Shown here: positions 1,114 to 28,063 of the stretch, piece after piece | Position numbering within the stretch: the stretch's first letter is position 1 | Layout: each line of letters opens with the position of its first letter | From: Haplodiscus bocki | Taxonomy: Eukaryota | Direction of reading: 5' to 3' | Assembly: GCA_965655095.1 (NCBI GenBank) | Contig: OZ296650.1 | Location: forward strand, 133,982,001-134,046,000 | Length of the DNA stretch: 64,000 nucleotides | Position numbers and translations under genes: made by a program | Notes under the pieces: generated by a model | What the model was told of the DNA's origin: nothing | The model's database searches: none | What the model saw: the letters and a program-made list of their open reading frames with translations, nothing else

Positions 1114-4100
1114 CTAATCTGCAAGCGTTAGCATCACATTCGAATATTTGTGATTAACCATTGCTCTTTGCCAATCCTGTTCGAAAGAGTAACGGCTTCG
1201 GGAAACAGCGTTGGAAAACCCCGTCACGTAAGCAACTAAAGCCCAGGGTCTTCTTTCAACAGGCTTTGTAAATGCGCTCCCATTTCCCGAATTATGCTCC
1301 TGCAATCGTCGCCGCAACGTCTTACAGCTTCCAATGTAAAAAAGTTCCCTGCGTTTAACGCTCACCAACAAATAACAGTAACCAATTGCCGAAAGGGGTA
1401 CATCAAAAACACGTAAGGGAAAGGGATAAAATGTCTGGATCGCTGAAACACCGGAATTACAACTGCCACGAGACGACAAAAAGTTATCTATCAAAGGTAC
1501 CAAATGGCTATCTTTGCGGCAAAGAAGATTAATTGCATCAAGTGTACGCTGCTTGTCACCGACAAACGTTATATGGGAAAGATCAGTGACCCGACTAACA
1601 ACTACATAAAGCTGCTCTTTCAGCCAGTAGGAAAATTTTTTACCACCAACAATCTGTGTTGCCAAGCTTGGAACAGTGTCACCCATTATTTTGTGAACCG
1701 TTGACGCCACATACATTTTCAAAGGAAACTGAACACGTCTGCAAACGGTAGAATTGCTATACTTATGGAGAACGCCAATTCTTTTACGAACAACTACAAG
1801 TCTCCAGGAATTAACGTCCGGGTTATTAGATGACACAGACCTTACTCCGGCTGGTGCAACTCTCACAACAATATGAGGATCATTTTCATCGAACGATTCA
1901 ACTAAACACAATTGTCCCTGGAACAGTTTCAGCGATGGCAAATTGCAAGTTAAGCGCAATACACACCCAACATGTATAAACAAAGACTCTGGCTCAAGGC
2001 AACTTCGGTTGAGGAACTTGCTGACGGGTGCTGTTGCGGTAACCCAATTCTGGGTTCCTGTATTTGACATTTCATCCTTGCAATGGAAAGACACACTCTG
2101 TATGTTTTGATGTGTTGTCACAAACGATATTCTCTCTTCCACGGCCTCTTTTTCCGCAACTCGCGTACTGAACACTCTCAAAATATCCAGAGGGACTTCC
2201 GTCCACGTGCTTACAAAAATACAGAACTTGTCAATGATCTCACAACACTCCTTAATACATGCTTCTGTCACAGGATATTCAGACAGCAAATCCAGAAGTC
2301 TCTTTCCTTGCTGGTTCTGCATCCTCACATAGTGCTTCAAATACCGAACCTCGAAATTAGCTAACACCGAGTTGCTCAGCAAAAGGAACGTTCCCGTAGG
2401 AGGCGGAAGTTGACGAAAATCACCTGTGCAAATAACAATCTTTCCTCCAAAAGGAAGATTGTTTTCAGACACGGCTTGCAACACATTGTCCATTGCGGAC
2501 CAAAGTTCAGCTGAAATCATTGAGACTTCCTCGACAAATAAAACATCCAACCTCTCCAAAAAAGTAAATTTTAGAGGATCTCGGGCAAGAGTGTTCAATG
2601 TATGCGAAACTAGATGAGTCACCGTTCCATTTTGAACGACAGGGAAAGGGATTAAAGCGTTTATGTGTCTTCCGCCGAAAAGTGAAGCTCTCTCCGCAGC
2701 GACACTAGTTATGACGCATCTCAATCCCCTAGCTAGAGCCGCGATCACACAATGGATCAACACATGGCTCTTTCCTGTACCTGGTGGACCAACTATGAAC
2801 TGATGTTTAATAAAGGCAGTCGTACAAGAACAATAATTATCGTACAAAGAACAAACGTAATCCAAAATATTCTGTTGATCATGCAATGATTCGTCAGTCT
2901 GGTTGCGCGCTTTATGTATCTTCTGGCTCCAAGTAAAAGGACGTGCTAAGGTGGCGTTCATCAATTCTGCATACGTTGGTAAACCAACATAACCCCCATT
3001 GGCAATGGCACACAGAAGACTCTCTTTCTGCGCATTTAATTCGTGTGAAATATTGCTGTCACTCTGCTGCACAATACTCTGTTCTAAGACGCGAGGTGTT
3101 GAGCACGGAAAAACGACCGAATTATTTTGTGCTGCTTGCTGGATGCACAAATAGGCACTCGTAACAAATCGATCTAGTAAAGTAGATGATCCTGGATAAT
3201 AGCGTAATTGTTCAAGCACAAAGCGCCGAACAACATCAATAACTTCGGAATCTTCGCATCCCAAATGAGACCTCGCTAAAGAAGCCTCAAAGAACGCAGA
3301 TTTCATATTCGATTGAGAAAAAATGTCAAGTTCGGTTACGTATTCTCCAAGAGACAACAGAATGTGGGTCAAAAAATTGGTTGTGTTCCTCGGAACAACG
3401 TTCGATAAAACTACTTGAGTTTGACAAACCTTTTTGTCATAAATGAACTTGTGACTTGAACTGCTCGTTGTACATGCAATGGCTTCATGACATTGCCTGG
3501 AGAAACGACGGACCCCACTAGAAAAGTTGCGACAGTAGTTGAAAAAAGCTTCTTTGTACAAAGCATTAAGGTATATGCAATAGCCGAGGCCATCCACCCA
3601 ATATGATTTGGTTACATTTCTCTTTAGTAAACTTTCTGGTGTCAACTTTGAGGGCTTTCGGAAGCGGCAGAACCAAGTAAAATAGTTTTCCACTTTGAGC
3701 ACAAAAGTTAGTTCAGGGGGTCGTACACCAAAAACTGTTATCTTGTCTGGAGAAAGAGAACTTTTTTCTGCATCAATTATCAGCAGCTTCTGATTAACCG
3801 TGAAGCAACGGTGAGGAGGAAAGTCCTTGCTGTGTCTAATGGAACTCTGGCGCCCAAAAAGAGGACCCTGATTGCTACTAGAAAGCCTGCATTTCGGTTC
3901 AATGACTATTCCAGCCCGTTTCTCTCGCGGGGCAGTGACAACATGAATGAATTGTATATTGGTCACCACGTAAGGAAATCGCAATGACCACCACACGGAT
4001 TCCGTTAAACTCAAAATGCGAGAGTTCAAACACTTTTTCTTTGGCTTTTCCTCCTTGCTCATATTGGTCAAGTATACCCCAGCGATTTTGTTGTTCACTT

Positions 4101-7100
4101 GTTGATCAACATGGAAGTCATACAAATCTGTTGCACTTGACGTAGAAATAGAAACTTCGGCGCGTTCCTCCACGCCTGCAACATATTTTGACAGATAACG
4201 GCTACTCATGTAAATGTCGCAAATTTGTAGATTGGTGCTAGATCGGACGAGGGCAAAAATTTTGGCGTTTGTTGGAGAAGTGTGCGTGTTACTTTCTGTT
4301 GGATAATGATGCTTGCCACCACAAAGGCGCTGATCAATGGTGACAGAACAATCAAAGTCACTCGACTCAGCTAATCCGATGTTCTTCAAAACTGCTATCG
4401 TTTCCTCAGACAGTTCTTTGTGAATACATTTGTAGGTAAAATTAGCAGAAGGAGGGTATTTGGGCACGCGGCACGTTTTTCTTTTCAATTTGTCAGTTTT
4501 TTTCTGACAACGAAATTTAGCTTTAAAACAGCTGTGTGATTGGTAACGGTTGAACAGATCTCGTAACTCGTTCAACTCATCCAAACTATAATTGTGCGAA
4601 CCAACTTCAGTCAATAAATTCCCCAGAAACGTTGTTGCCGAGCAACAAATTCTAGACCTTACTGCTTCACTAAAGCAATCTTCTGCCGTCCAAATCAAAG
4701 CATGTACATGAGGGAACCCACAAGCTTCATCTTGAAACTCATACCGATACCAAATCTTATTAACCTTTCCCAATGGCTGCTCGGGTGACGTTTCAATGTA
4801 CTTCATGACAAGACGAGAAGCTCGTTCCCACGCTCTCAACATGGTGACCATTTCAGATTGAATCGCTGATTTTCGGACCTCCTCTTTACAGACGTCTTTC
4901 GGAAACTTTGCGTCCAACGCACTAAAAATCTTCCTCAAGCCAGGATGCGTTGACTGCCCACAAGTGTAAGTGAAAAAATATGTAGCTGGTCGTTCTTTCA
5001 AAGCTGCTCCCAATTCATTGACATTCTTCCGAGAATCGCATTGATCAAAAAAAATTGCCCCTTCTCGCATGGCATGTACATTTTTTCGTTGCCGAGCGGC
5101 TTCACTCCAACCTCTGTTCAATACTATTCTGGTGTCATTGACACGCAGCTGTAGGTTAAATATTGTGTCAAATACGTATTGGACGTAACGAGGATCCGTT
5201 GACGTCAACAGAGACGAATCTTTCAAGCGCGTTTGTAAATGTTGTTCTAAGCTAGCGAAGCCGAGCAATTCGTTTTGTTTGTGATCATTATACAAAGGAG
5301 ACGGTATTGCACCCGAATAACTGCCGTCTGTATTTTGGTGCCAAAAGATGGACGGAAACAACATGGCTTCCGGCTGAAGCAAAGGGACAGAATTAGGGGG
5401 CGACGTTGCAGTGATATTCTCCAGAAATCTCTTATGTCTAGCTGCAACATACAACGGAGACCCTTTACTCCTTTTCAGTAAACCGCATTGACCATTCAAT
5501 AAAACATGTAGTGGGAGCTGAAAATCAGTGCTGTCTATTCGGAAATCACGTTCCAAAACAACAGTTGAATCTCCAGCAGCAGTTGTAACAGGCAGCGAAA
5601 CATGCGATCCCTCAGAATCTTCCTCTAAAAGGCCAGGGTTGGTAACAAATTCCGAGGACGCGACAGTGTTGGTAGGCGATGTGGACCGATTCTCTGAATC
5701 GACAGAAACACGGCTATAGCTACAATCATCTAACTGACTTGAGCCGCACGCTGAGTTTTTTGTGGACTCACCAAAGATCCTTTTTTTACCATCAAAAACA
5801 AAGTGCTTTTCCTGACTTTCATCTTCAGAATGCATCCTGCAAACACTTGCCAAACAACCAGACACTGGACAACGTAAAAAAGAACTTCTACCACATGAGC
5901 ATTTGAAACCACTTGAAGGAAAATCACGGGTGAGTAACAGAGAATGCTTTTTACAAAAGAATTTTCCTTGACCTGCCAGTGTTTCAAAATATTTCGACCG
6001 CAACTCACTAATATCGGCAAAGGTCTGTCGATAGTAAACACAGATATTCCAATAGTCATTAATAAAATGATCAACCGCTCTATCACAAGGCAGCCTCACC
6101 TGTTCAGGAAAAATACTTTTGCTTTTATACACCCAAAAACTTTGAAAGACACCACCATGCCTCAAAAGAATGTTATTACGAGTCGCTAAACCTTCAGTAG
6201 CAATAAATTTCAACTCGAAAACGGACTGAGCAGTTTGGAAGTTCAGAGGAGCTTTGAATTTAGAACGCAAAGTATTTACTCCCGCGTATGAAAAAAGTAT
6301 GACATTTACACCTTCAAATTCTTGAGCTTCCAAAAAATGCCAAATATCTTGACGGCTTGCCACGTTTTCATGGATGACATCATCACAAAATTGTGACACA
6401 CCGAAACTGAGACAACGAGATGGACTTTCCGGAAATCTTGTAAACAACTTCGACAATCCATCACTCATAGACGCATCCACAGTTTTTCTTGTGCAGCGAC
6501 GGAACCTTGGAAAAATTACAGGGTCCAAAAATTGCAGCAAAGGAAAAATCGCATTATCACCACCAGCTGAATCAGATATGGATCGACACAGTTGAGGAGA
6601 GATGCAAAATAAAGTTTGCAACAACGACAAAAAGTGAGTCTTGCAGCTCAAAATTTTTGGAGGAGAGGAACCAAACGAATTCGGAGGCTGAGCGAACGTC
6701 ACAGACTTGAATTTTGCGCATAAGCGTTGTCCATCAGTCAATCCAGGAGAACTGAATAAACGATACGTATCCGTTATAGACACACTTGTTGATGCGGAAA
6801 GAGAAGCAGCCGACTGTTCAATGTTCGGTTTACTTTGAATGCCTTGTCGGATTTCATCAGTTGTTTCGCCAGAAGACACTAAGCTATTCAAAAAATATTG
6901 AATATCGCTTCGGTAAAAACTACATTGAGATTCCGCCTTCACTAACAGATCCGAAGTAATATCCCAACGGCGTTGAGAGCTCAAGCGAATGCTACTAATG
7001 CCTGAATAATTACCGACAGCTTTCAGCAACTGGAAAGTGTGACTAGCGTAATTCGCTTTGGCATTCTTCAAAATACGCAAATTTGGAGCAACAAATGCTA

Positions 7101-9352
7101 ATCTGTCGTTGGTAGGAACACTGAGACGTCCCAGAGACGGGTGTGCAGGCGGGTGAAGATACTGCAGGTGAGACCCATTGTTATGCTGCACACAAGTTCC
7201 GATAACAAGGCCATATGCCCCATTAACACTGACAAAGCCGGAAACATCAAACGCATCCAAAACTTTCATTGGTTTCAACCAATCGTCTCTTGCACCTCGC
7301 AAATGGTACAAGTAATCAGAGCTGAACGATGTGAATGAAGGCAAAATCCCATTTACAAGGTGGTTGAAACCGATTCGACCTGTTTCTTCAACAAATGTGA
7401 AACAACCGAAGGGACATCTACAATTTGGATAACATTCATTATCTAAGGCTTCCTCCAAATCAGTGAAATTACCCGAATTTATTTTGTCCAGAAAAACTTC
7501 CTTCCGTTTTGTTATATCAACTAGAACAGATGGATCACCCATAGAAACAGCAGGATGCAGATGTTGACACATAGCCCAACTGTCGCGTATTTCGGGAGGT
7601 AAAAAAGAAACAAATTTTTTCATAGTACAATCTCGAATGCTGAGATCCTTCAGTAACGAATGAATCACGGAAGGCCAAGCGTACCGCCAACAATTTCCGC
7701 CATTATTGTAATTGAAACAACTTTGGCAGACCAGACAGGTAGCAGTAGGTCGCAAACCAAATCTCCTTCGTTTGATTGCTGTTTTTTCAAGAGTTTGCCA
7801 TTGCAAAGGATAAGCAGGAGTTGAAATTCGACAACATTTACCGCACATTTCTCTGTTTTGTGCTTTGTCGGCTGAAAAAGTGGACGTCAAAACACAATTG
7901 TCACTCGAGGCATCCTCATTACGACAGGCGTTATCTTTCTTCATAATCATTGTGGCTGTGCCATTGTGTGCGGATTGCGTGGATTGAATCTCCTGAGGCA
8001 GGGCATTGAAGCAAACACCTGGGCTCAACGGGTCACACTTAGAACCATTTTCTTCACATTCAATTGTCGCTAGGCTTAAACAACTGTTGCTGGGCAACAA
8101 AAGGTCGTTGTGCATACCGCCCAATCCAACAGAGGGTGATGTGAGGCCTTCATCGCACAAATGAGGCAAAACTTTAAATTCAGAACACGCACTACCTTTT
8201 GGATCAGAAGTGTTCGCATGAAATGACATTGCATTGTGATGCCGTATCTGGGAATGAACTCTGGACGCAACCATGAGGCAAACTTTGCTGTGAATTTGGA
8301 TTTTCTGCCGACAACACTGCTACCGTTTCAAAATGGTTACCTGTATGAGTATGTACCAGGAAGACAGATGGAACGTCCATTGAAGCACGATCTCCGGCAT
8401 AGCTATAAACTATCCACAATTTTGTCATGCAATGGTAAACGTAAACATCAGCCACCGCAATTTGGGCGAAAGCATAGATCTCTACACAAGTGCCATACAC
8501 ACCATTCGATCTCATTCCGGAACGATTCAAATATTCGTTCACGTTTGAAGCTGTCTCTACCACAACATTTCCATCAATGGTTGTGTAAATTTCCAGAAAA
8601 TGCGGAGCAATATCTACGGAGGGTAAAGCCAAACAAATACGCTGGCGTAGTTGTGAATGATACCAATATTGTGACCCAATTGACACCGCTAAAGCAGAGA
8701 ACAAACAATTACCGTCACCTGGAACAGGATGAGTTTGTGATGGATGCAAACTGTTCAAAGATTTGGCACCCAACAAGTGTGTGTTCAATGGTTTTGCCAC
8801 AAACGGTATTCCAAACACAATGCAAATTCTCGTCAAATTAGCGATTGTGCATGAAAAAGCTGTTGAATTCGGCACGTTCGAGAAAAGACTCATGGTATTG
8901 AATGGCGCAGAAAACAGCGACCGATCAAAATAGTCTTCACCAACTGAGGCTTTTACCATGGATGATTGGAAACAGGAGTAGTCTTTGCTGCCATAAAAAC
9001 ACCCACATGTTACGCATTTCCTGGGCTCTCTGCACAATTTCTTTTTTTTTGGCGGGCCAGGGTTGGTTTCTATACCACTTCTCAACAGAAACAAAAGTAA
9101 CATTCTGCGAGTCATCGAAACCTCATCAGAATTGCCGATCCTCATAAACTGCAAGTGATCCTGAAGACACAAAGAGACACAAAATTCCCCAACGGTGACG
9201 TCTGAGCTGAAGACTTCTCCGACATTGTTCACATAAACAATTCCATCTTTTTCCAAAACTGTCCATAAAGAAGACCAAATCATCAACAAAGTTAAACAAA
9301 GTGAGTAAACCATTTTCTGAAAATGAGATTCGTCAAAACTCTGTACACCCAT
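1114..9352 (-). pseudogene. Disrupted OTU/HUH-Rep/PIF1/GIY-YIG gene, copy A1 (ORFs 8204-9358 and 1114-8274)
   Basis: Motifs: OTU GDGNCLF...NHFE; Rep YFFTYTC, EFQ...PHVHALIW, YLSKY; PIF1 GPPGTGKS, PFGG...GDFRQLPP, QLYVVVSR; GIY-YIG CYLL...YIG...RRLQEHN. Relative to A2 it has an 11-nt deletion after 8227 (frameshift) and TAC>TAG at 1114-1116, which removes the last 29 aa. Confidence 0.85.
9053..9115 (-). other. 2A-like StopGo peptide motif (MTRRMLLLFLLRSGIETNPG|P), copy A1
   Basis: ExNPGP core preceded by a Leu-rich helix; followed by PKKKK and a CxxC knuckle. Confidence 0.65.
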
Positions 9353-10319: not shown

Positions 10320-10925
10320 TTTTTTTTTTCTCACAAAAATATCCGTCATTTCCGTCATTTTTTTCCCGTCATATCCGTCATTTTTTTTCGGCATTTCGAT
10401 CGAAAATTTCTGGTTAACCGAAATCAATTGCCGGTTCAGTTTTGGCATCCTTAGCGAAGGCTAGCATACGAGAAAAAGTTGGTTTTGGCGATCAAAAATG
10501 ACGGAATGACGCATTTTTTGCAAAAATTTACAAATTCATCAGCGCCTATCTCCCGAACAAAAAAAGCTGGGCCAAAAATTTTTGGCATGCAAATTGTTCA
10601 AATCATTTGTGCCTCACACACAAAATTTGGGCCAATTGTATCGGGTAGATGTGGAACTAAAGCGATGAGAAGTCAAAATCGGGACAAAAAACACGATCAT
10701 TCCGTCATAACTCATCACGTTGTGAATGGAAAAAGTTTTTTCCCTCCTCCCCTTTCTCACCTCGCCATTTGAGGACCGCATGCAAATTATGAATAAATTC
10801 TATCGGGTAGGACCCGAGATCGGCTTCCCAGACCCCTAGTGCACCTAGATGAAAATTTATCGACTAATATTTAACCTCGGCAACGGGACCCTACCCGGCC
10901 TCGGATTCTAAAAAGGTTACATCCC
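10320..10925 (+). repeat. Right-terminal module (A type) with CGTCAT repeats and subterminal GC hairpin (10876-10903)
   Basis: Shares blocks CGTCAT...TTTTTTCGGCA, AAAATTTTTGGCATG, CACACAAAATTTGGG, CATGCAAA and GAGATCG in the same order with the ends of the other units. Confidence 0.8.
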
Positions 10926-10943
10926 TGACCACCCAGTGGAGGC
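10926..10943 (+). repeat. Invariant junction 18-mer TGACCACCCAGTGGAGGC (A1/A2)
   Basis: Exact match; 1 of 7. Confidence 0.97.
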
Positions 10944-12089
10944 AAAGGTACCGTTCGCTAGAGAGGCCCAGTGAATGTTGGATAGGTATCTGTGGACACC
11001 AACTGAAATGGAGTTTTGTCATAAAAGTAAAAAAAATTAACTCTCAATCTCAACAGAACAGAAGCTAAAACCGTTCAAGAAATGAACAACAATAGCCAAA
11101 ACGGAAAAATAGATCCGACTTTATCAAAGAAAAACCCCTGAGTAAAAGAACTTTTTCCAACTCCTATTGAAAAAACCAGGTCCAAAAATAACAATTAAAT
11201 TTTGAGAAGAAACATAAAACTCAAAACAGCTGTTTATGAAAAATTTCAAAGCTCCTACACGTTTTCCCATTTATAAATGTTCCTAAAAGATCGATATGTC
11301 TACATAGCAAAACGAGGCTCACACACTGCAAAATTCGCTCAACCTTCTTTACTGTCTTATTTTAAACGAGAATTTCATCTCCGTTTAATCACTGCGACAT
11401 TTTGAACAAAGACAACATAGACTTCTGTGAGCGTACCACTGACTTGGGACATCGAAATGACTTCACGGCTCATGCAAACTATAAATCGTTGCTATTCACA
11501 GTGAATCTCTTTTAGAACTTTGAACACTTTCAAAGTATTTTCATTTGTTCCTCCAACTTTATGAGTAAACTATTTGAACACGAGGCAAATCGCGAACCAA
11601 AAGTTCCTATCTAATTTGAGTACGTTAAATTTATCAATATCTTGACAAATTGGAGCAAATATATCTTCTAATACTAATGATAGCATCATTATTGAGAGGC
11701 CACTGACTTAAGAAAATTACTTCCAAAGTGCTTTACTAACATTGAAAAGCGTAGTGAAAATTTCATAAAACCTTCAACGTGGATTATTGAAGTAAATCGA
11801 ACTACTTTACAGAGAATAATGCAGGGTACTGCCATAACGAAACAAGATTTATTTAGGTGAGAGAAAAACAGTTGTTTGTTTCATTGTAAAGTTTGTGGAA
11901 AGAAGGTTTAAATGTAAAAGAGACCATGTAAAGTTGAGTTGCTAAGGCAACTGCGTTGAATTCATCGACGGCACTACAGAATAACAATAGATGTGAAACT
12001 TTCAAAAAGGAACATCCTTCTATATGTTCATTCTCATTCGACTTCAAAAAGCACATATCCGTAGGGGATTTTGAAAAATCCATAACAAA

Positions 12090-13082
12090 TCAATCGTGCT
12101 GAACATTCGGGTTGGCATGCTGTAGTGGAGGTGGCCGATTGGGCGGTTGCCGAGCATTACCAATAGTGTACTTCAAGTTGTTCGGGATTACCGAAGCTGG
12201 CATAAGACGACAAATTCGCACATGATGAACAGCTTGAGTAATTGACTCATCACTGACACTGGATTTGCTGTAGCCAGATATTCTCCAACCACCATTATCG
12301 TTGACATATGCTGTCACCCTAGTCATTGATTCACGCAACAGATTCAATTCAACCGAGCTAGCTGGCAATCGAAGAACGTCATTGCTGCAAAAGAACGATG
12401 CCAACTGATGACTTTGGGTCATGTCTCCGCTCAGGGGATCGTCCGCTTCTTCTTCCACGTCCCTAGAAATGATGCGTGCGGCGACAGTCCACGACGAAAC
12501 TGAATTCTTGTGTAAGCAAGCGCACACCGTTTCATTTCTGAGAATACGACGGTCGCACATACTTCCAGAACACGTAGGTGATATAATGTTTCCATGCAAA
12601 AACAACAAATTTCTACTGTTCAGAGTGTAATGGAACATTGCGGGCGTGCTCGGTAGGGAAATAATTGGAATTGGCGGAAAATCCTCATTGCTTACGTTAT
12701 TGATAACAACGATCGCCTGATGAGTTTCAATAATCGGATTATTTTTGTCATTCCCTAAACACGTGTTCGAATATATAGGCTCTGTAACCTCTACAACAGA
12801 ACCAACAGTCAGATGACGATCCGAAAACAGTTTAGCAGACTTCTGCGCGGAAACTGAGATGACGACAAAACAATCTTTACTATTCCATTGACCAATAATA
12901 GCCATTCTGTCATATGTCCCTTCAGGAAGTGGTCGTTTCAATTTTGTAGCTTGAGGTCTAAACAACTGAAGTGGCCGATCACTTTTTTTCAGAACCAAAA
13001 CTATCCCCCTTATTACAGTGTTCTGGCTGTTGCGCAGGAAACCTTCGCCTGTAACTTCAGCAACAGTTACTTGTCTATTCAT
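12090..13082 (-). CDS. Conserved 330 aa accessory protein (ORF2); possible OB-fold plus Cys4 zinc site
   Basis: Clear full-length homolog of 42356-43366 (RGIVLV, PLQLFRPQ, LTVGS...EP, CLGND, PTCSGxMCDRR...CxC, NGGW). The fold is an inference. Confidence 0.85.
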   Translation of the reverse strand: MNRQVTVAEVTGEGFLRNSQNTVIRGIVLVLKKSDRPLQLFRPQATKLKRPLPEGTYDRMAIIGQWNSKDCFVVISVSAQKSAKLFSDRHLTVGSVVEVTEPIYSNTCLGNDKNNPIIETHQAIVVINNVSNEDFPPIPIISLPSTPAMFHYTLNSRNLLFLHGNIISPTCSGSMCDRRILRNETVCACLHKNSVSSWTVAARIISRDVEEEADDPLSGDMTQSHQLASFFCSNDVLRLPASSVELNLLRESMTRVTAYVNDNGGWRISGYSKSSVSDESITQAVHHVRICRLMPASVIPNNLKYTIGNARQPPNRPPPLQHANPNVQHD

Positions 13083-14025
13083 TTCTTAAAAAATGCAAAA
13101 GGATGTGTTTCAAACGAGGAAGTACACGATAAAAAACACAAGTCAAGATTTGCAGTCTGATTTCTCTCAAACGGAAAAACGCCCAATGAACAAAGAAAAA
13201 TTTTTGATGAAAGAAAACTTTAGAAAATCCGTTTTTTTATTAAAGCCTAGCAACTCTTCAGTCCCGTCTATGGTACACTTTGTCTGGAATCAACTGAATC
13301 TGCAGTCATTTATCGGGTGTGTCCTCAAAACAGTTTTCCACTCCAAGTCAAAAATTGGTCGCATACCGAAAACATATAAATTGAAACACAGATAGTACAT
13401 TAAACTGAATTTCCTCTGAACTATTTCTATTTCCAAAAACAAAACAATTTACAACAGATTCCAGTAAAAAAACCTGCATGCCAAAAGGATATAAACAAAA
13501 TGCCAAAAAAGCGTTCAGCTTCAAATAACATCATCAAATGTAAAATCATAGTTCAACTAAATGAATGCAATATTGCCAATTCATTTTTTACATTTAAAAA
13601 CCATATGGCAGCACAAATAGTGCAATTAAACAATAACACCAAAACATGACAGAAATGACCGCATTACAAATATTCACGCGGTGTTAAAACACCGACGGAC
13701 TTCCTAATCATCAAGTTATCTTCATGGAGCTTGCGGTAATTGATGCCTATGCCGATTCGTGAAACTCACATCTGTTTCTTTTGACCTGCAAGAAACAGAT
13801 AATCTTGAAATAGTTCGCAGAGGACTTGCTTGTTTTCACGATGAATCGTGAAAACAAGCAAGTGCTGTTATTGAAGCATAAAAAACTCTCCAGTTAACTC
13901 TTCCAACTCCGGATTTGGTTACCAAAAACTTTAAACTATTGACACTGAGTAAAATGAATATGTTATGCACGAAATTTGTATCTACTCACTTGGTTCGGAT
14001 GTTAAATGCATCAACCGTGTAATCA

Positions 14026-14679
14026 CTAACGTTCCGGTTTTCTTTCAAAAATTGTGGCAAAAATATGTTGCTGCTTATCTTCGAAATTGTCAATAAAACA
14101 GAAACCAAAAACTAAAACACTAACTTTGTTTCGGAGATTATTGCGTCTATTGCGGCACCGACGCAAAGTCAAATCCTGCAAACCATTGTTCAACAGTGTT
14201 CTGGATAGCATATGATTCTCTAACAAGCTATTCAGGTGCAGATCGTTACTTTCATCAAGTAAAAGTTTGTACCGTTTTGATAGAATCGATTTCATTTTCA
14301 AAAAAATAATTCCTGTTGGACAATTTTCCAAGAGCTCGTTTAAATTATGCGCTCCTGATCGTGGTAAGTAGGAAAAAGCCACGACATTGAATTTTCTCAA
14401 GTACGCCAGTTTACTGAAAAAAGCCTCAGGACTCATTGCCGGATTCTTCTTGCTTGACAAAGAGTTATTGACAGCATCATGCCAAATGATAACCTTTCTT
14501 CCATTAGTGTTGCAGGAATTCGATTGAAGAAGATAACAAATGTTTTTTTCTGGTTGGTAGTTATTTAGCGAAGCACCAGAAATTGCACAAAATTGTGACT
14601 TGAAAGGATCAAAGAGGTAAGGTTTCTCCTGAGCTGCCCAATAAAGGGAAGAGGCCGCCAAAACAAAATATTCAGACAT
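14026..14679 (-). CDS. 217 aa protein, probable divergent SGNH-hydrolase-like
   Basis: ATG-started ORF in the same position as the SGNH gene of element B. Block-like motifs FVLAASS, ISGASL, IIWHDAVNN and DLHLN are in SGNH order. Confidence 0.5.
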   Translation of the reverse strand: MSEYFVLAASSLYWAAQEKPYLFDPFKSQFCAISGASLNNYQPEKNICYLLQSNSCNTNGRKVIIWHDAVNNSLSSKKNPAMSPEAFFSKLAYLRKFNVVAFSYLPRSGAHNLNELLENCPTGIIFLKMKSILSKRYKLLLDESNDLHLNSLLENHMLSRTLLNNGLQDLTLRRCRNRRNNLRNKVSVLVFGFCFIDNFEDKQQHIFATIFERKPER

Positions 14680-16020
14680 AACAACCGGAAACCGAAAGAC
14701 AATGTATTATGAAAACAAACAAACGAACGAAACATACTTTATATTGTTTACTTTGCAATTAGAAAAACCTACTCAAACTCCAGAATCTCCTTTCATTCAT
14801 GTCATTTGCTTATTAGAACAAAAACGAAGTCAAACAAAAATTCACAACGGCCACACAGCTACAGAGTCGTCAATACGGTCAAAAATCAGAAATGTTCTTT
14901 GAGGAAAGGAAATTTTATAAAAAATACAATAGCCACATACCCGAAGAATGAAAATCTCACTCAAACAACTCGATATGCACGAAATAAGAGCCCCTCTTTA
15001 ATCGCTGCAAAGAAGTACATAGTGGTGAAACACTTCAATTCACAAAAGTAACGATAATAAAAAAGCTTCTCATAAAACAAATGATAGAGCGTTTAATGAC
15101 TTGAAAGAAAAAGTGTTCACAGCTTCCGTAACAAGGAATATGGAATGGATTTGAAAGGTGCCGCGCTACAAATGAACTCCGCTGCTATCTCTTTATGTTT
15201 CCAGGCCAGTTTGTAGAACATGGGTTGCTGGACAACCAACTCATATACGTTCATCTAACAAACAACATTCTAATTGAGAACTTGCGTCGGCGGTTGCTGA
15301 GCAACCAGCAAAACAAAACATGAAAGCTAAATTGCCTCCGTCAGCTATAAAAAAAATAAATCATTATATGAGTCAGAATTAACATCTAAAACAGCTCACA
15401 GTCAGTGATACAATCACAAAACATAAACAGCAATGTCACATTGTAGAAACCCCGTCACATTCTCTTGCAGTTGACAATTTTTTCAATAAATTTCTGCACT
15501 GATTACCGAACAAAAAGTTAAACCCCTATAGCGTCTGAAATATTGGAAACAATCTCCCAAAAACATCAAAACAGCTCCTTCAGTGTAATTACAGACACAT
15601 GTCAAAACAAATTATGGCGGAAAAGGATTGTATGATTCTTTCAATTACCGTGTGATATAATTGTGTACGTTATTCCATAAAGTATCATAGCATAAAAGTT
15701 CGATCACGAATCTAAACAAAGTTACTCAGTGAGTCCAACGAAAAGGTGATAAAAATGAAAACGACATCCCGTTACAAAATTAATCTTCCAACTATTACAA
15801 CACATCCTTTTTTTCAAAGGTTGGCTCAAAACCAACAGCAAACAATGGCAAAGAATCAAATCAATCAACATGATTGGCTACAAAAATTATTTGCTGAAAA
15901 GTTGGTTTCGGACAAACCAATGTTCAGGAATACTTTTGAAATACAATCGGTTTTCTCGATGGCAGTTTTACAAAAGTCTAAATCGTTGTAGACAATTACA
16001 TATGAACAATCAAATAAACA

Positions 16021-19000
16021 CTAAAAATTCTGCATGCAATCACATTCCAGGGCTGTTTCGATACCTGTAACTTTATACAAATCCATAAGAACATGGCATT
16101 CTGACAAGTAATCTGCAAGCGTTAGCATCACATTCGAATATTTGTGATTAACCATTGCTCTTTGCCAATCCTGTTCGAAAGAGTAACGGCTTCGGGAAAC
16201 AGCGTTGGAAAACCCCGTCACGTAAGCAACTAAAGCCCAGGGTCTTCTTTCAACAGGCTTTGTAAATGCGCTCCCATTTCCCGAATTATGCTCCTGCAAT
16301 CGTCGCCGCAACGTCTTACAGCTTCCAATGTAAAAAAGTTCCCTGCGTTTAACGCTCACCAACAAATAACAGTAACCAATTGCCGAAAGGGGTACATCAA
16401 AAACACGTAAGGGAAAGGGATAAAATGTCTGGATCGCTGAAACACCGGAATTACAACTGCCACGAGACGACAAAAAGTTATCTATCAAAGGTACCAAATG
16501 GCTATCTTTGCGGCAAAGAAGATTAATTGCATCAAGTGTACGCTGCTTGTCACCGACAAACGTTATATGGGAAAGATCAGTGACCCGACTAACAACTACA
16601 TAAAGCTGCTCTTTCAGCCAGTAGGAAAATTTTTTACCACCAACAATCTGTGTTGCCAAGCTTGGAACAGTGTCACCCATTATTTTGTGAACCGTTGACG
16701 CCACATACATTTTCAAAGGAAACTGAACACGTCTGCAAACGGTAGAATTGCTATACTTATGGAGAACGCCAATTCTTTTACGAACAACTACAAGTCTCCA
16801 GGAATTAACGTCCGGGTTGTTAGATGACACAGACCTTACTCCGGCTGGTGCAACTCTCACAACAATATGAGGATCATTTTCATCGAACGATTCAACTAAA
16901 CACAATTGTCCCTGGAACAGTTTCAGCGATGGCAAATTGCAAGTTGAGCGCAATACACACCCAACATGTATGAACAAAGACTCTGGCTCAAGGCAACTTC
17001 GGTTGAGGAACTTGCTGACGGGTGCTGTTGCGGTAACCCAATTCTGGGTTCCTGTATTTGACATTTCATCCTTGCAATGGAAAGACACACTCTGTATGTT
17101 TTGATGTGTTGTCACAAACGATATTCTCTCTTCCACGGCCTCTTTTTCCGCAACTCGCGTACTGAACACTCTCAAAATATCCAGAGGGACTTCCGTCCAC
17201 GTGCTTACAAAAATACAGAACTTGTCAATGATCTCACAACACTCCTTAATACATGCTTCTGTCACAGGATATTCAGACAGCAAATCCAGAAGTCTCTTTC
17301 CTTGCTGGTTCTGCATCCTCACATAGTGCTTCAAATACCGAACCTCGAAATTAGCTAACACCGAGTTGCTCAGCAAAAGGAACGTTCCCGTAGGAGGCGG
17401 AAGTTGACGAAAATCACCTGTGCAAATAACAATCTTTCCTCCAAAAGGAAGATTGTTTTCAGACACGGCTTGCAACACATTGTCCATTGCGGACCAAAGT
17501 TCAGCTGAAATCATTGAGACTTCCTCGACAAATAAAACATCCAACCTCTCCAAAAAAGTAAATTTTAGAGGATCTCGGGCAAGAGTGTTCAATGCATGCG
17601 AAACTAGATGAGTCACCGTTCCATTTTGAACGACAGGGAAAGGGATTAAAGCGTTTATGTGTCTTCCGCCGAAAAGTGAAGCTCTCTCCGCAGCGACACT
17701 AGTTATGACGCATCTCAATCCCCTAGCTAGAGCCGCGATCACACAATGGATCAACACATGGCTCTTTCCTGTACCTGGTGGACCAACTATGAACTGATGT
17801 TTAATAAAGGCAGTCGTACAAGAACAATAATTATCGTACAAAGAACAAACGTAATCCAAAATATTCTGTTGATCATGCAATGATTCGTCAGTCTGGTTGC
17901 GCGCTTTATGTATCTTCTGGCTCCAAGTAAAAGGACGTGCTAAGGTGGCGTTCATCAATTCTGCATACGTTGGTAAACCAACATAACCCCCATTGGCAAT
18001 GGCACACAGAAGACTCTCTTTCTGCGCATTTAATTCGTGTGAAATATTGCTGTCACTCTGCTGCACAATACTCTGTTCTAAGACGCGCGGTGTTGAGCAC
18101 GGAAAAACGACCGAATTATTTTGTGCTGCTTGCTGGATGCACAAATAGGCACTCGTAACAAATCGATCTAGTAAAGTAGATGATCCTGGATAATAGCGTA
18201 ATTGTTCAAGCACAAAGCGCCGAACAACATCAATAACTTCGGAATCTTCGCATCCCAAATGAGACCTCGCTAAAGAAGCCTCAAAGAACGCAGATTTCAT
18301 ATTAGATTGAGAAAAAATGTTAAGTTCGGTTACGTATTCTCCAAGAGACAACAGAATGTGGGTCAAAAAATTGGTTGTGTTCCTCGGAACAACGTTCGAT
18401 AAAACTACTTGAGTTTGACAAACCTTTTTGTCATAAATGAACTTGTGACTTGAACTGCTCGTTGTACATGCAATGGCTTCATGACATTGCCTGGAGAAAC
18501 GACGGACCCCACTAGAAAAGTTGCGACAGTAGTTGAAAAAAGCTTCTTTGTACAAAGCATTAAGGTATATGCAATAGCCGAGGCCATCCACCCAATATGA
18601 TTTGGTTACATTTCTCTTTAGTAAACTTTCTGGTGTCAACTTTGAGGGCTTTCGGAAGCGGCAGAACCAAGTAAAATAGTTTTCCACTTTGAGCACAAAA
18701 GTTAGTTCAGGGGGTCGTACACCAAAAACTGTTATCTTGTCTGGAGAAAGAGAACTTTTTTCTGCATCAATTATCAGCAGCTTCTGATTAACCGTGAAGC
18801 AACGGTGAGGAGGAAAGTCCTTGCTGTGTCTAATGGAACTCTGGCGCCCAAAAAGAGGACCCTGATTGCTACTAGAAAGCCTGCATTTCGGTTCAATGAC
18901 TATTCCAGCCCGTTTCTCTCGCGGGGCAGTGACAACATGAATGAATTGTATATTGGTCACCACGTAAGGAAATCGCAATGACCACCACACGGATTCCGTT

Positions 19001-22000
19001 AAACTCAAAATGCGAGAGTTCAAACACTTTTTCTTTGGCTTTTCCTCCTTGCTCATATTGGTCAAGTATACCCCAGCGATTTTGTTGTTCACTTGTTGAT
19101 CAACATGGAAGTCATACAAATCTGTTGCACTTGACGTAGAAATAGAAACTTCGGCGCGTTCCTCCACGCCTGCAACATATTTTGACAGATAACGGCTACT
19201 CATGTAAATGTCGCAAATTTGTAGATTGGTGCTAGATCGGACGAGGGCAAAAATTTTGGCGTTTGTTGGAGAAGTGTGCGTGTTACTTTCTGTTGGATAA
19301 TGATGCTTGCCACCACAAAGGCGCTGATCAATGGTGACAGAACAATCAAAGTCACTCGACTCAGCTAATCCGATGTTCTTCAAAACTGCTATCGTTTCCT
19401 CAGACAGTTCTTTGTGAATACATTTGTAGGTAAAATTAGCAGAAGGAGGGTATTTGGGCACGCGGCACGTTTTTCTTTTCAATTTGTCAGTTTTTTTCTG
19501 ACAACGAAATTTAGCTTTAAAACAGCTGTGTGATTGGTAACGGTTGAACAGATCTCGTAACTCGTTCAACTCATCCAAACTATAATTGTGCGAACCAACT
19601 TCAGTCAATAAATTCCCCAGAAACGTTGTTGCCGAGCAACAAATTCTAGACCTTACTGCTTCACTAAAGCAATCTTCTGCCGTCCAAATCAAAGCATGTA
19701 CATGAGGGAACCCACAAGCTTCATCTTGAAACTCATACCGATACCAAATCTTATTAACCTTTCCCAATGGCTGCTCGGGTGACGTTTCAATGTACTTCAT
19801 GACAAGACGAGAAGCTCGTTCCCACGCTCTCAACATGGTGACCATTTCAGATTGAATCGCTGATTTTCGGACCTCCTCTTTACAGACGTCTTTCGGAAAC
19901 TTTGCGTCCAACGCACTAAAAATCTTCCTCAAGCCAGGATGCGTTGACTGCCCACAAGTGTAAGTGAAAAAATATGTAGCTGGTCGTTCTTTCAAAGCTG
20001 CTCCCAATTCATTGACATTCTTCCGAGAATCGCATTGATCAAAAAAAATTGCCCCTTCTCGCATGGCATGTACATTTTTTCGTTGCCGAGCGGCTTCACT
20101 CCAACCTCTGTTCAATACTATTCTGGTGTCATTGACACGCAGCTGTAGGTTAAATATTGTGTCAAATACGTATTGGACGTAACGAGGATCCGTTGACGTC
20201 AACAGAGACGAATCTTTCAAGCGCGTTTGTAAATGTTGTTCTAAGCTAGCGAAGCCGAGCAATTCGTTTTGTTTGTGATCATTATACAAAGGAGACGGTA
20301 TTGCACCCGAATAACTGCCGTCTGTATTTTGGTGCCAAAAGATGGACGGAAACAACATGGCTTCCGGCTGAAGCAAAGGGACAGAATTAGGGGGCGACGT
20401 TGCAGTGATATTCTCCAGAAATCTCTTATGTCTAGCTGCAACATACAACGGAGACCCTTTACTCCTTTTCAGTAAACCGCATTGACCATTCAATAAAACA
20501 TGTAGTGGGAGCTGAAAATCAGTGCTGTCTATTCGGAAATCACGTTCCAAAACAACAGTTGAATCTCCAGCAGCAGTTGTAACAGGCAGCGAAACATGCG
20601 ATCCCTCAGAATCTTCCTCTAAAAGGCCAGGGTTGGTAACAAATTCCGAGGACGCGACAGTGTTGGTAGGCGATGTGGACCGATTCTCTGAATCGACAGA
20701 AACACGGCTATAGCTACAATCATCTAACTGACTTGAGCCGCACGCTGAGTTTTTTGTGGACTCACCAAAGATCCTTTTTTTACCATCAAAAACAAAGTGC
20801 TTTTCCTGACTTTCATCTTCAGAATGCATCCTGCAAACACTTGCCAAACAACCAGACACTGGACAACGTAAAAAAGAACTTCTACCACATGAGCATTTGA
20901 AACCACTTGAAGGAAAATCACGGGTGAGTAACAGAGAATGCTTTTTACAAAAGAATTTTCCTTGACCTGCCAGTGTTTCAAAATATTTCGACCGCAACTC
21001 ACTAATATCGGCAAAGGTCTGTCGATAGTAAACACAGATATTCCAATAGTCATTAATAAAATGATCAACCGCTCTATCACAAGGCAGCCTCACCTGTTCA
21101 GGAAAAATACTTTTGCTTTTATACACCCAAAAACTTTGAAAGACACCACCATGCCTCAAAAGAATGTTATTACGAGTCGCTAAACCTTCAGTAGCAATAA
21201 ATTTCAACTCGAAAACGGACTGAGCAGTTTGGAAGTTCAGAGGAGCTTTGAATTTAGAACGCAAAGTATTTACTCCCGCGTATGAAAAAAGTATGACATT
21301 TACACCTTCAAATTCTTGAGCTTCCAAAAAATGCCAAATATCTTGACGGCTTGCCACGTTTTCATGGATGACATCATCACAAAATTGTGACACACCGAAA
21401 CTGAGACAACGAGATGGACTTTCCGGAAATCTTGTAAACAACTTCGACAATCCATCACTCATAGACGCATCCACAGTTTTTCTTGTGCAGCGACGGAACC
21501 TTGGAAAAATTACAGGGTCCAAAAATTGCAGCAAAGGAAAAATCGCATTATCAACACCAGCTGAATCAGATATGGATCGACACAGTTGAGGAGAGATGCA
21601 AAATAAAGTTTGCAACAACGACAAAAAGTGAGTCTTGCAGCTCAAAATTTTTGGAGGAGAGGAACCAAACGAATTCGGAGGCTGAGCGAACGTCACAGAC
21701 TTGAATTTTGCGCATAAGCGTTGTCCATCAGTCAATCCAGGAGAACTGAATAAACGATACGTATCCGTTATAGACACACTTGTTGATGCGGAAAGAGAAG
21801 CAGCCGACTGTTCAATGTTCGGTTTACTTTGAATGCCTTGTCGGATTTCATCAGTTGTTTCGCCAGAAGACACTAAGCTATTCAAAAAATATTGAATATC
21901 GCTTCGGTAAAAACTACATTGAGATTCCGCCTTCACTAACAGATCCGAAGTAATATCCCAACGGCGTTGAGAGCTCAAGCGAATGCTACTAATGCCTGAA

Positions 22001-24358
22001 TAATTACCGACAGCTTTCAGCAACTGGAAAGTGTGACTAGCGTAATTCGCTTTGGCATTCTTCAAAATACGCAAATTTGGAGCAACAAATGCTAATCTGT
22101 CGTTGGTAGGAACACTGAGACGTCCCAGAGACGGGTGTGCAGGCGGGTGAAGATACTGCAGGTGAGACCCATTGTTATGCTGCACACAAGTTCCGATAAC
22201 AAGGCCATATGCCCCATTAACACTGACAAAGCCGGAAACATCAAACGCATCCAAAACTTTCATTGGTTTCAACCAATCGTCTCTTGCACCTCGCAAATGG
22301 TACAAGTAATCAGAGCTGAACGATGTGAATGAAGGCAAAATCCCATTTACAAGGTGGTTGAAACTGATTCGACCTGTTTCTTCAACAAATGTGAAACAAC
22401 CGAAGGGACATCTACAATTTGGATAACATTCATTATCTAAGGCTTCCTCCAAATCAGTGAAATTACCCGAATTTATTTTGTCCAGAAAAACTTCCTTCCG
22501 TTTTGTTATATCAACTAGAACAGATGGATCACCCATAGAAACAGCAGGATGCAGATGTTGACACATAGCCCAACTGTCGCGTATTTCGGGAGGTAAAAAA
22601 GAAACAAATTTTTTCATAGTACAATCTCGAATGCTGAGATCCTTCAGTAACGAATGAATCACGGAAGGCCAAGCGTACCGCCAACAATTTCCGCCATTAT
22701 TGTAATTGAAACAACTTTGGCAGACCAGACAGGTAGCAGTAGGTCGCAAACCAAATCTCCTTCGTTTGATTGCTGTTTTTTCAAGAGTTTGCCATTGCAA
22801 AGGATAAGCAGGAGTTGAAATTCGACAACATTTACCGCACATTTCTCTGTTTTGTGCTTTGTCGGCTGAAAAAAGTGGACGTCAAAACACAATTGTCACT
22901 CGAGGCATCCTCATTACGACAGGCGTTATCTTTCTTCATAATCATTGTGGCTGTGCCATTGTGTGCGGATTGCGTGGATTGAATCTCCTGAGGCAGGGCA
23001 TTGAAGCAAACACCTGGGCTCAACGGGTCACACTTAGAACCATTTTCTTCACATTCAATTGTCGCTAGGCTTAAACAACTGTTGCTGGGCAACAAAAGGT
23101 CGTTGTGCATACCGCCCAATCCAACAGAGGGTGATGTGAGGCCTTCATCGCACAAATGAGGCAAAACTTTAAATTCAGAACACGCACTACCTTTTGGATC
23201 AGAAGTGTTCGCATGAAATGACGCGGAAATCACATTGCATTGTGATGCCGTATCTGGGAATGAACTCTGGACGCAACCATGAGGCAAACTTTGCTGTGAA
23301 TTTGGATTTTCTGCCGACAACACTGCTACCGTTTCAAAATGGTTACCTGTATGAGTATGTACCAGGAAGACAGATGGAACGTCCATTGAAGCACGATCTC
23401 CGGCATAGCTATAAACTATCCACAATTTTGTCATGCAATGGTAAACGTAAACATCAGCCACCGCAATTTGGGCGAAAGCATAGATCTCTACACAAGTGCC
23501 ATACACACCATTCGATCTCATTCCGGAACGATTCAAATATTCGTTCACGTTTGAAGCTGTCTCTACCACAACATTTCCATCAATGGTTGTGTAAATTTCC
23601 AGAAAATGCGGAGCAATATCTACGGAGGGTAAAGCCAAACAAATACGCTGGCGTAGTTGTGAATGATACCAATATTGTGACCCAATTGACACCGCTAAAG
23701 CAGAGAACAAACAATTACCGTCACCTGGAACAGGATGAGTTTGTGATGGATGCAAACTGTTCAAAGATTTGGCACCCAACAAGTGTGTATTCAATGGTTT
23801 TGCCACAAACGGTATTCCAAACACAATGCAAATTCTCGTCAAATTAGCGATTGTGCATGAAAAAGCTGTTGAATTCGGCACGTTCGAGAAAAGACTCATG
23901 GTATTGAATGGCGCAGAAAACAGCGACCGATCAAAATAGTCTTCACCAACTGAGGCTTTTACCATGGATGATTGGAAACAGGAGCAGTCTTTGCTGCCAT
24001 AAAAACGCCCACATGTTACGCATTTCCTGGGCTCTCTGCACAATTTCTTTTTTTTTGGCGGGCCAGGGTTGGTTTCTATACCACTTCTCAACAGAAACAA
24101 AAGTAACATTCTGCGAGTCATCGAAACCTCATCAGAATTGCCGATCCTCATAAACTGCAAGTGATCCTGAAGACACAAAGAGACACAAAATTCCCCAACG
24201 GTGACGTCTGAGCTGAAGACTTCTCCGACATTGTTCACATAAACAATTCCATCTTTTTCCAAAACTGTCCATAAAGAAGACCAAATCATCAACAAAGTTA
24301 AACAAAGTGAGTAAACCATTTTCTGAAAATGAGATTCGTCAAAACTCTGTACACCCAT
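16021..24358 (-). CDS. 2A-like leader/OTU/HUH-Rep/PIF1/GIY-YIG protein, copy A2, split by one +1 frameshift (ORFs 22832-24364 and 16021-22842)
   Basis: Same motifs as A1. A6 at 22869-22874 versus A5 at 7875-7879 in A1; removing one base gives a continuous ~2778 aa ORF from the ATG at 24358. Confidence 0.85.
24059..24121 (-). other. 2A-like StopGo peptide motif, copy A2
   Basis: Identical to 9053-9115. Confidence 0.65.
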
Positions 24359-25931
24359 CAACACTCAGTGGCGGCGCCTACATCTATAAAACTCAGTCAA
24401 TGAAGGCTTTGAAACAGCCACATGCGTTACAGAAAAATCTTCTATCGAAAGGAACTTCAAAAACAGTTGGATCATTTGAATTCAAAAGATTCACTGCATT
24501 GAATATTTGAAGTTCACCAGTTGAATTTTTAACTGTCTCTTCAGTGACTTTTCGTTTTTAATGCCGAAAATACCATGCTTGTGTGATTTCAGCAAGACTT
24601 GCAGTACTTGAAAAAATGATTAGTTAAATACGATTCAAATTCAAAACAATGAGGACTGTTAGCGTTGTACACCAAACAAAACAAACTGCTGAGTAAGTAT
24701 ACTCTCAAAATATTCCTTGTCGAATGCCAAAGTGGTGCTTGTTGAACGCCAACCATAAACTGACCAAAAAAATTAACAATTACATAACACACTCCAACTT
24801 ACAAGGCATGAAAGAGGTTCAACTCTCGTAATGCAAACGTGGAAAGTTCCAACACTGCTGATTTCTACAAAAAAACATAACAAGGAAAACGAAAGAACCT
24901 CATAGATGCTCAGAACAATAATATAACAAACTTAAAATTTCTGGCAAACAATTGAAATGGAATGCAAAACTTATTGCCAAAACTTTTATTTTTATTTTTC
25001 AAAATGAATGACACGTAATGGAAGCATCTATTGCATTCTACAACCAACAAAGAGCCCTGATCCAAGATATAATTCATGTATGCCATTATACTTGATGAGA
25101 AAAAATGTAGGATTATAAAATATAACTTACATAAGTAACGCCTAACTAGATTAAATTTGAGTTTAGCTGAAAAAACTGTGTCATATGAGACAAAATACTG
25201 TCAAAGTGTCAACGACCACTTGTGTAGAAGCTGCGAAACATTGTTAGCCGCATTTTACGCGCAAGACGATCAATTCCAGCGTTTTTAGGCGCTTTTTACG
25301 AGCAAAGCGATCCTTTCCCGGGAAAAATTTTTTTTCTCACAAAAATATCCGTCATTTCCGTCATTTTTTTCCCGTCATATCCGTCATTTTTTTTCGGCAT
25401 TTCGACCGAAAATTTCTGGTTAACCGAAATCAATTGCCGCTTCAGTTTTGGCATCCTTAGCGAAGGCTAGCTTACGGGAAAAAGTTGGTTTTGGCGATCA
25501 AAAATGACGGAATGACGCATTTTTTGCAAAAATTTACAAATTCATCAGCGCCTATCTCCCGAACAAAAAAAGCTGGGCCAAAAATTTTTGGCATGCAAAT
25601 TGTTCAAATCATTTGTGCCTCACACACAAAATTTGGGCCAATTGTATCGGGTAGATGTGGAACTAAAGCGATGAGAAGTCAAAATCGGGACAAAAAACAC
25701 GATCATTCCGTCATAACTCATCACGTTGTGAATGGAAAAAGTTTTTTCCCTCCTCCCCTTTCTCACTTCGCCATTTGAGGACCGCATGCAAATTATGAAT
25801 AAATTCTATCGGGTAGGACCCGAGATCGGCTTCCCAGACCCCTAGTGCACCTAGATGAAAATTTATCGACTAATATTTAACCTCGGCAACGGGACCCTAC
25901 CCGGCCTCGGATTCTAAAAAGGTTACATCCC

Positions 25932-25949
25932 TGACCACCCAGTGGAGGC
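25932..25949 (+). repeat. Invariant junction 18-mer (A2/N1)
   Basis: Exact match; A1/A2 identity ends 2 nt after it. Confidence 0.97.
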
Positions 25950-26988: not shown

Positions 26989-27006
26989 TGACCACCCAGT
27001 GGAGGC
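26989..27006 (+). repeat. Invariant junction 18-mer (N1/N2)
   Basis: Exact match. Confidence 0.97.
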
Positions 27007-28045: not shown

Positions 28046-28063
28046 TGACCACCCAGTGGAGGC
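28046..28063 (+). repeat. Invariant junction 18-mer (N2/B)
   Basis: Exact match. Confidence 0.97.

Follow-up and report, generated by a model that had tools for sequence, protein, structure and literature searches.

A candidate StopGo (2A-like) peptide under purifying selection heads a Helitron-like transposase in Haplodiscus bocki

The 64,000-nucleotide stretch of Haplodiscus bocki contig OZ296650.1 analysed here (GCA_965655095.1, positions 133,982,001 to 134,046,000; hereafter the window) raises the question of what a peptide resembling the 2A or StopGo signal is doing at the head of a rolling-circle transposase. StopGo is known from RNA viruses, certain LINE retrotransposons and a small number of invertebrate genes. 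The window holds two head-to-tail tandem copies of a 15-kb unit, referred to as family A, and on the minus strand both (9053-9115 and 24059-24121) encode LLLFLLRSGIETNPG↓P, the arrow marking the skip site, in front of an OTU–Rep–Pif1–GIY-YIG transposase (Table 1). A preliminary description had placed the motif at 9053..9352 and 24059-24358; both are present, the ORFs start at 9352 and 24358, and the 99 codons from the first ATG to the Gly contain VYSLCLTLLMIWSSLWTVL, as it had read. Since the copies are in tandem and 99.65% identical, the two motifs count as one observation. The sequence analysis confirms the motif as real, selected and wider in distribution than that description had seen; it points to a recoding signal of known type in elements of a class for which we found no report of one.

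Table 1. Positions in the window of the family-A features and of the family-B element used for comparison
Feature	Position	Strand	Remark
Upstream in-frame ATG extension, codons 1-13 of the earlier reading	9314..9352	-	ATG lost in 3/5 subfamilies
Splice-acceptor-like pyrimidine tract and CAG (TTTTCAG), 3 nt before Met14	9317..9326	-	kept in 5/5 subfamilies
Variable leader from Met14, 66 codons ahead of the 2A	9116..9313	-	stop- and indel-free in 5 subfamilies, dN/dS 0.62
Hydrophobic stretch of the family-A leader	~9254-9310	-	Kyte-Doolittle 11-mer 2.3
2A/StopGo-like peptide MTRRMLLLFLLRSGIETNPG, 20 codons, copy 1	9056..9115	-	six-frame scan
Core octamer GIETNPG↓P, copy 1	9053-9076	-	
Predicted skip-site Pro, residue 1 of the downstream product, copy 1	9053..9055	-	aligns with start Met of 2A-less relatives
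Basic NLS-like patch (PKKKKL) and CxxC knuckle, immediately past the skip site	9002..9052	-	putative NLS role
OTU-like cysteine protease domain, copy 1	8348..8722	-	PF02338, E 3.4e-4
11-bp deletion breaking copy 1 past the OTU domain	8219..8236 (near 8225)	-	
Rest of transposase frame, copy 1	1114..8274	-	
Helitron_like_N; Pif1; GIY-YIG, copy 1	~4693-4992; ~2401-2808; ~1162-1383	-	
2A-like peptide, copy 2, identical to copy 1	24062..24121	-	skip Pro 24059-24061, Met14 at 24319
Transposase frame, copy 2	16021..24358	-	broken by 1-bp insertion at 22869
Entire unit of family A (copy 2), ~15.0 kb, arranged head to tail with copy 1	10937..25942	-	
Accessory ORFs of the copy-2 unit	14026-14679 and 12090-13082	-	
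Family-B transposase, 2,685 aa, same domain order	31526..39583	+	without 2A; comparison point

A six-frame scan finds NPGP at only these two places in the window. The family-A core, GIETNPGP, fits the expanded octamer (D/G/C/N)(V/I)ExNPG↓P defined by Li et al. 2026 (PMC12846837), which is expected by chance about 7e-4 times per window over six frames. Neither window copy is intact, owing to the 11-bp deletion in copy 1 and the 1-bp insertion in copy 2, both past the OTU domain. Of 81 candidates from a search of the genome, 66 match, seven of them in open frames of 2,780 codons in which the 2A lies in frame within a single ORF and the junction carries no stop. The intact protein has all four domains (OTU, Helitron_like_N, PIF1 and GIY-YIG). 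The HUH Rep and the fused Pif1 helicase score above cut-off (PF14214 and PF05970), with HVH and YLSKY motifs; the OTU call falls slightly short of the Pfam cut-off, and its predicted structure matches solved OTU domains (best E 8.8e-6).

The same single ORF, with an HUH Rep (HVH, YxxKY), Pif1 and an upstream OTU, is found in the HLE1 and HLE2 elements of the HELIANO study (Li et al. 2024, PMC11417382), where a GIY-YIG domain, as in family A, is noted in one Sphagnum family of HLE2. The ends differ: those of family A are GGTGGTC... (5') and ...CCACTG (3') with junctions CT(A/G/T)↓GGTGGT, not TC...CTRR at A↓T nor an insertion at T↓T. They fold weakly (-7.3 kcal/mol over 110 nt), and the 3' junction can be read through as CTGG. 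The 5' TC, 3' hairpin with CTRR and A↓T insertion of HLE1 are thus not found at the family-A ends, nor is the T↓T insertion of HLE2/Helentron, and unlike the latter the intact family-A protein has no AP endonuclease (Exo_endo_phos) or DUF6570 match at E<=0.01. Because ends and junctions fit neither group as delimited in the relevant part of PMC11417382, the element is filed as Helitron-like without assignment to HLE1 or HLE2; that part of the paper mentions no 2A in either of them. Family-A junctions often abut the ends of other families (window 10923-10942 and 25942; L050, L051 and L086-L105), and the shared CT(A/G/T)↓GGTGGT sequence suggests site-specific rolling-circle insertion building mixed arrays.

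The Gly at the position of the canonical Asp, which had been taken for a non-canonical variant, is a known working form: it belongs to the expanded core and is commoner than Asp in RNA viruses (1,096 against 688 sequences in the RNA-virus set of PMC12846837). Across 19 lineages recovered with a pattern that fixed positions 14 and 16-19 only, leaving 8 and 12 free, position 12 is Gly in 14, Cys in three, Asn in one and Asp in one, exactly the four residues of the expanded core; position 8 is Leu in all 19, positions 3-9 are mostly hydrophobic, and position 13 is Leu, outside the (V/I) core, in 3/19. The 2A of infectious flacherie virus (IFV; placed in class A by Rao et al. 2025 and resembling motif 5 of Li et al.), ...ELIRAGIESNPGP (PMC12338488), shares the register L8-x-R-(A/S/G)-G12-(I/V)ExNPG↓P, reading L8-I-R-A-G12-IESNPGP in an L-rich upstream context as in family A. 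Likeness to RNA viruses is also seen in the entries FLLRSGIESNPGP and MLLRSGIEPNPGP of the Li et al. dataset, which holds viral LLRSGIE(S/P)NPGP entries (PMC12846837). The short form of the IFV 2A is about 63% active (PMC2885027) and the long form, with AGIESNPGP, about 99% (PMC8623073), and the peptide is listed at 0.45 in the table of Rao et al. (PMC12338488); the upstream class ending in (A/G/S)G (L-rich G-type, motif 5) lies outside the assays of Li et al. (PMC12846837). In contrast to the IFV type, which stands between capsid and replicase domains, the family-A peptide belongs to a chromosomal DNA transposon and lies near the ORF start, before a basic patch. The 19 natural variants, with G, C, N or D at position 12, provide a test set for the L-rich G-type class.

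The preliminary description had proposed looking for NPGP in other relatives of family A; it is conserved in five subfamilies and under purifying selection. The 21 codons from MTRR to NPGP show no extra amino-acid states and seven silent ones, against 36/15 (amino-acid/silent) in the leader, 36/17 in the linker and 30/31 in the OTU domain (Fisher p 6e-4, 9e-4 and 0.015, respectively). Silent sites in the motif have diverged about as much (pS 0.19) as those elsewhere (0.12-0.21), so the constraint acts on the peptide; an overlapping RNA signal as the source of the conservation was rejected, silent sites varying freely. These counts exclude copies that are not intact, namely L016/L017 (Ser to Ile), L033 (Pro to Ser), L146/L147 (Pro to Leu) and L149 (Glu to Val); decayed copies lose the motif. 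The 30 codons past the skip site have a dN/dS of 0.07.

The predicted skip falls at the homologous N-terminus, as had been claimed. The downstream product, PPKKKKL...CVTCG, and the family-B start, MSKQ...KRRRCTSCG, read as described, and the basic patch and CxxC lie 9-18 residues past the skip Pro (34 in the metagenomic contig L114). Relatives without a 2A have the same patch after their start Met, with a Met-Pro start in 6/17 (e.g., MPPRKRR). Since this register is shared, skipping would recreate the normal N-terminus of the transposase family, and the basic patch presumably serves as a nuclear signal. The run of A straight after NPGPP (window 9035-9052; L024, L027 and L031-L035) is a recurrent indel site at which many copies are broken, leaving a leader-only frame of 113-140 codons. 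A programmed -1 frameshift at this run was considered and rejected, as the run is missing in family C and the copies differ there by indels, which fits a homopolymer mutation hotspot.

The motif is not specific to family A: it is also present in families C, D and E, in L114 and in 13 database proteins. In the same genome it heads family C (RGGLELNPGP), D (RSGVEWNPGP and RSGIELNPGP) and E (RSGIEWNPGP). Families B, F and G have intact frames and no 2A, so the peptide is not needed for transposition. Four of 16 further genome loci, intact or decayed, carry it. Among full-length homologues it is found in 6/51 (P0002-P0007, whose starts rest on gene calls); its absence from other database proteins may reflect truncated gene calls, as in P0001, a family-A copy whose call starts past the motif. 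A profile search listed 150 proteins, 147 of them new, and 12 match a loose pattern: four resemble copies of this genome's families, one has NPGPP only, and seven are further cases with an OTU-like match, all fragments judged apart from the Rep part. Because the Rep part lies outside these fragments, P0089 and P0093, both without the basic patch, and their fellows may be other elements. Three of the database proteins, P0004, P0054 and P0106, were compared with this genome, and none has a near-identical match there. In metagenomes, one of 39 loci (L114) matches through to the N-terminus and reads LLLGGIERNPG↓PPRKKVR; viral contigs gave one distant locus, helicase only.

On a quick Rep tree of 44 rows, which omits 17 of the 51 database proteins (near-duplicates, distant or long branches), the motif needs three changes. 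A, C and P0002-P0006 form one clade, with P0007 placed next to the B group, which lacks a 2A; a second, distant clade comprises D, E and L114, whose identity to A is about 33%. An earlier tree of 59 rows needed four changes, one of which stems from the truncation of P0001; both are quick-search trees supported by SH-aLRT only. The simplest reading of the tree would be two gains and one loss, the alternative being one gain and several losses. The 2A is retained across lineages about 33-58% identical in Rep. P0016, a homologue with 42% identity in the Rep region, carries the source label Perkinsus olseni, hinting that the transposase lineage reaches protists.

The leader had been read as 99 aa. 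An 86-aa leader from Met14 is more likely, because a 6-nt gap takes out the first ATG (9352) in three of the five family-A subfamilies, and Met14 (9313) is retained in all five behind TTTTCAG. Acceptor-like sites also precede the starts of families C, D and E by 6-9 nt. Families D and E (L041, L043, L056 and L067) have GT-AG-bounded breaks past the OTU domain and are broken again ahead of the helicase; these breaks are likely introns. Families A, B and C are uninterrupted. From the acceptor-like sites in C, D and E together with the intron-like GT-AG break in D and E, a spliced transposase mRNA is likely. Contigs from four sequencing runs of one study cover 30/30 bins and show no joint at the acceptor; as none of the runs is on record as RNA, expression is not inferred from them.

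Across the five subfamilies the 198 nt of leader show no gap event and no stop, against seven gap events in the 450 nt upstream, which speaks for a coding leader; but its dN/dS (0.62) is not significantly below neutral (p 0.13), and the family-A leader is only weakly constrained. Leaders in the first clade measure 53-160 aa and have a hydrophobic stretch in 6/8, those of P0002 and P0004 lacking a hydrophobic start. The hydrophobic N-termini are alike in A, C, P0005 and P0006, and of 28 pairwise leader comparisons only six reach p<0.02 (uncorrected). In family A, 50 residues separate the stretch from the 2A. The leaders of D, E and L114 shrink to 19, 20 and 31 aa, barely more than the 2A itself. 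The proposal of a membrane-targeted leader thus stands, as to hydrophobicity, for part of one clade and falls as a general feature; hydropathy makes an ER-targeting leader plausible for that clade only. The conserved unit, judged from these comparisons, appears to be the 2A rather than the leader. No fold is claimed for the leader, which has no usable atlas match and lies within residues 1-141, modelled by AlphaFold at pLDDT <50.

In the reading we prefer, to which we give a probability of roughly 0.6, the 2A ends an 86-aa leader, and StopGo would both free a nuclear transposase and act as a throttle or sorting switch. Translation would begin at Met14 behind the acceptor-like site. The L-rich G-type peptide would cause StopGo as the IFV 2A does, the ribosome releasing the 86-residue leader and resuming from the next Pro, and the predicted nuclear OTU-Rep-helicase-GIY-YIG product would begin PPKKKK. 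Only the skipped product would have a free basic N-terminus and reach the nucleus, and ribosome drop-off, or an unskipped product tied to the hydrophobic leader (predicted ER), would yield no working transposase. A translational throttle has been proposed for 2A-bearing LINEs (PMC3894237), and skip-dependent targeting has a precedent in sea-urchin NLR proteins (PMC4981915).

What the leader shows bears on an account in which StopGo works and translation starts at the Met of MTRR, the leader being the 20-residue 2A alone and the hydrophobic stretch incidental T-rich sequence. In family A a Met lies exactly 20 codons ahead of the skip site, and in D, E, P0054 and P0055 the distance from start to skip site is 19-20 codons, with a stop two codons upstream in E; the non-significant dN/dS of the leader agrees with it, and 7/216 non-coding windows of the element translate stop-free and equally hydrophobic. 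This start nevertheless seems rather unlikely, given 66 codons without indel or stop over five subfamilies, when just 3/216 non-coding windows are open for that length, the acceptor-like site before Met14, and the lack of a Met at -20 in C and P0002-P0007, which need an upstream start. Taking both start-site variants together, ribosomal skipping at Gly↓Pro is likely from the sequence evidence. A peptide that does no more than pause the ribosome, or that seldom skips, and is retained as a signal for pausing or drop-off while most transposase stays fused to the leader, would accord with a HEK293T reporter screen in which 139/1,969 single-position core variants were highly active and most were low (bioRxiv 10.64898/2026.09.24.754024), and with LINE 2A-like sequences, several or many of which are weak or inactive yet conserved in position (PMC3708506); the Leu at position 13 in three lineages points the same way. 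We consider it distinctly unlikely: the changes at position 12 remain in the known functional set, a hydrophobic leader still attached to the transposase would work against import into the nucleus, and the site coincides with the natural N-terminus of the relatives.

The C-terminus of ubiquitin is LRGG, and removal of the leader by a protease instead of the ribosome, with LLRSG or LLRGG as a ubiquitin-like site cut by the element's own OTU, or with signal peptidase as the enzyme, would draw on the OTU fold with Cys and His motifs about 110 residues downstream and on the readings LFRGG in family C and LLRGG in P0002. A SignalP cut is, moreover, predicted at VET↓NPG in a sea-urchin 2A (PMC4981915). 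Such cleavage would leave the conserved ExNPGP past the Gly unexplained, that Gly is replaced by C, N or D in 5/19 lineages, and the same motif heads LINE and Polinton-like ORFs, with no OTU found in the ORFs scanned; we hold it to be highly improbable. That the same 2A subtype is common in the genome and heads LINE and Polinton-like ORFs would also suit a relic without function that was acquired from a LINE or Polinton carrying a 2A in this genome, a view largely refuted by the dN/dS result and hardly compatible with retention across lineages so far diverged in Rep, so that it can be given next to no credence.

The preferred reading, a 2A that ends the 86-aa leader, has parallels in other hosts of the peptide. 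In the 2A-bearing LINEs described in 2013 the 2A likewise lies within about the first 100 residues of a single long enzyme ORF, and down-regulation of the downstream enzyme was proposed, as here; here, in contrast, the 2A is carried by a rolling-circle DNA element, which lacks an RT and has no ORF1 that the 2A could replace. The published LINE cases were found with a GD(V/I)ExNPGP probe, and the LINEs of this genome carry the G-type. The sea-urchin NLR 2A signal sequences (Roulston et al. 2016, PMC4981915) likewise tie a hydrophobic N-terminal leader to a 2A, skipping deciding between cytosol and ER, and families D and E have a similar layout of 19-20 aa. The 2A at the extreme N-terminus that marks this type is found in D and E, with their 19-20 aa leaders, and not in family A, which has 66 codons before the 2A and a transposase as cargo.

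The preliminary description knew of no 2A in rolling-circle DNA transposons, and a full-text literature search, whose scope did not extend to subscription journals, theses or Repbase Reports, agrees: it returned no paper linking Helitrons with 2A-like or NPGP, none joining DNA transposon, 2A-like and translational recoding, and none on Polinton/Maverick with a 2A peptide, and the parts of the supplements of Rao et al. (PMC12338488) and Li et al. (PMC12846837) covered contain no 'Helitron'. A selected 2A heading a rolling-circle transposase would extend StopGo to DNA transposons, which have neither RNA genome nor polyprotein and so isolate the question of what an N-terminal 2A is for. As one genome holds close relatives with and without the 2A, and with long and minimal leaders, the throttle and targeting hypotheses are testable.

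Across the genome, the pattern (V/I/L/M)ExNPGP has 205 matches, against 11 for the reversed control. Thirty-four loci, picked for distinct codons among 100 matches listed of the 205, comprise three more RepHel families, four LINEs (Pfam RT), seven Polinton-like loci and 20 unclassified, many of them chance-like. The LINE-type loci L052, L055, L059 and L062 have the layout 2A, PHD, endonuclease and RT, three with a G-type and one with a D-type 2A. In the Polinton/Maverick-like loci (L054, L058, L070, L071, L083, L084 and L085) a G-type 2A heads a PHD-like/integrase ORF, with the order 2A, PHD-like finger and rve integrase and a type-B polymerase nearby; one example reads LLIRAGVEKNPG↓P behind a leader of 35-40 aa, and the sampled copies all look broken. 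By their layout these loci appear to be a second class of DNA element with the 2A motif. Since the G-type 2A is common in the RepHel, LINE and Polinton-like classes, capture between co-resident elements is plausible, a donor being beyond proof from 20 residues. More tentatively, and with the balance of probability against the whole, StopGo may have entered DNA transposons repeatedly, at least twice in the site-specific, Helitron-like OTU-Rep-Pif1-GIY-YIG lineage and again in Polinton-like elements, which would share one G-type 2A with the LINEs of the same host. In the family-A clade the 2A would then be coupled to an ER-targeting leader; skipping efficiency would set the dose of transposase reaching the nucleus, and skipping would release a short, rapidly evolving peptide, secreted or membrane-bound, that has its own role.

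Several further features of the window were noted. An accessory ORF of 330/336 aa (12090-13082, minus strand; 42356-43366, plus strand) is common to A, B, D and L114 and has a conserved C-x-G-xx-C-D...C-x-C motif and no Pfam match. Its atlas neighbours are the OB-fold ssDNA-binding proteins POT1, CTC1 and MEIOB (0.91-0.93; low recognition), and its structure model (pLDDT 42.5) is too poor for a structure search. The 217-aa ORF of family A (14026-14679, minus strand), also without a Pfam match, is still open in the diverged copy L047. Repeats of terminal regions, 650-1,450 bp long and 65-88% identical, lie between elements (25576-28087, 44342-45004 and 59554-61269) and are probably non-autonomous units or duplicated 5' ends. 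A third, B-like element without a 2A, decayed and with several breaks, occupies 48248-56127 on the plus strand.
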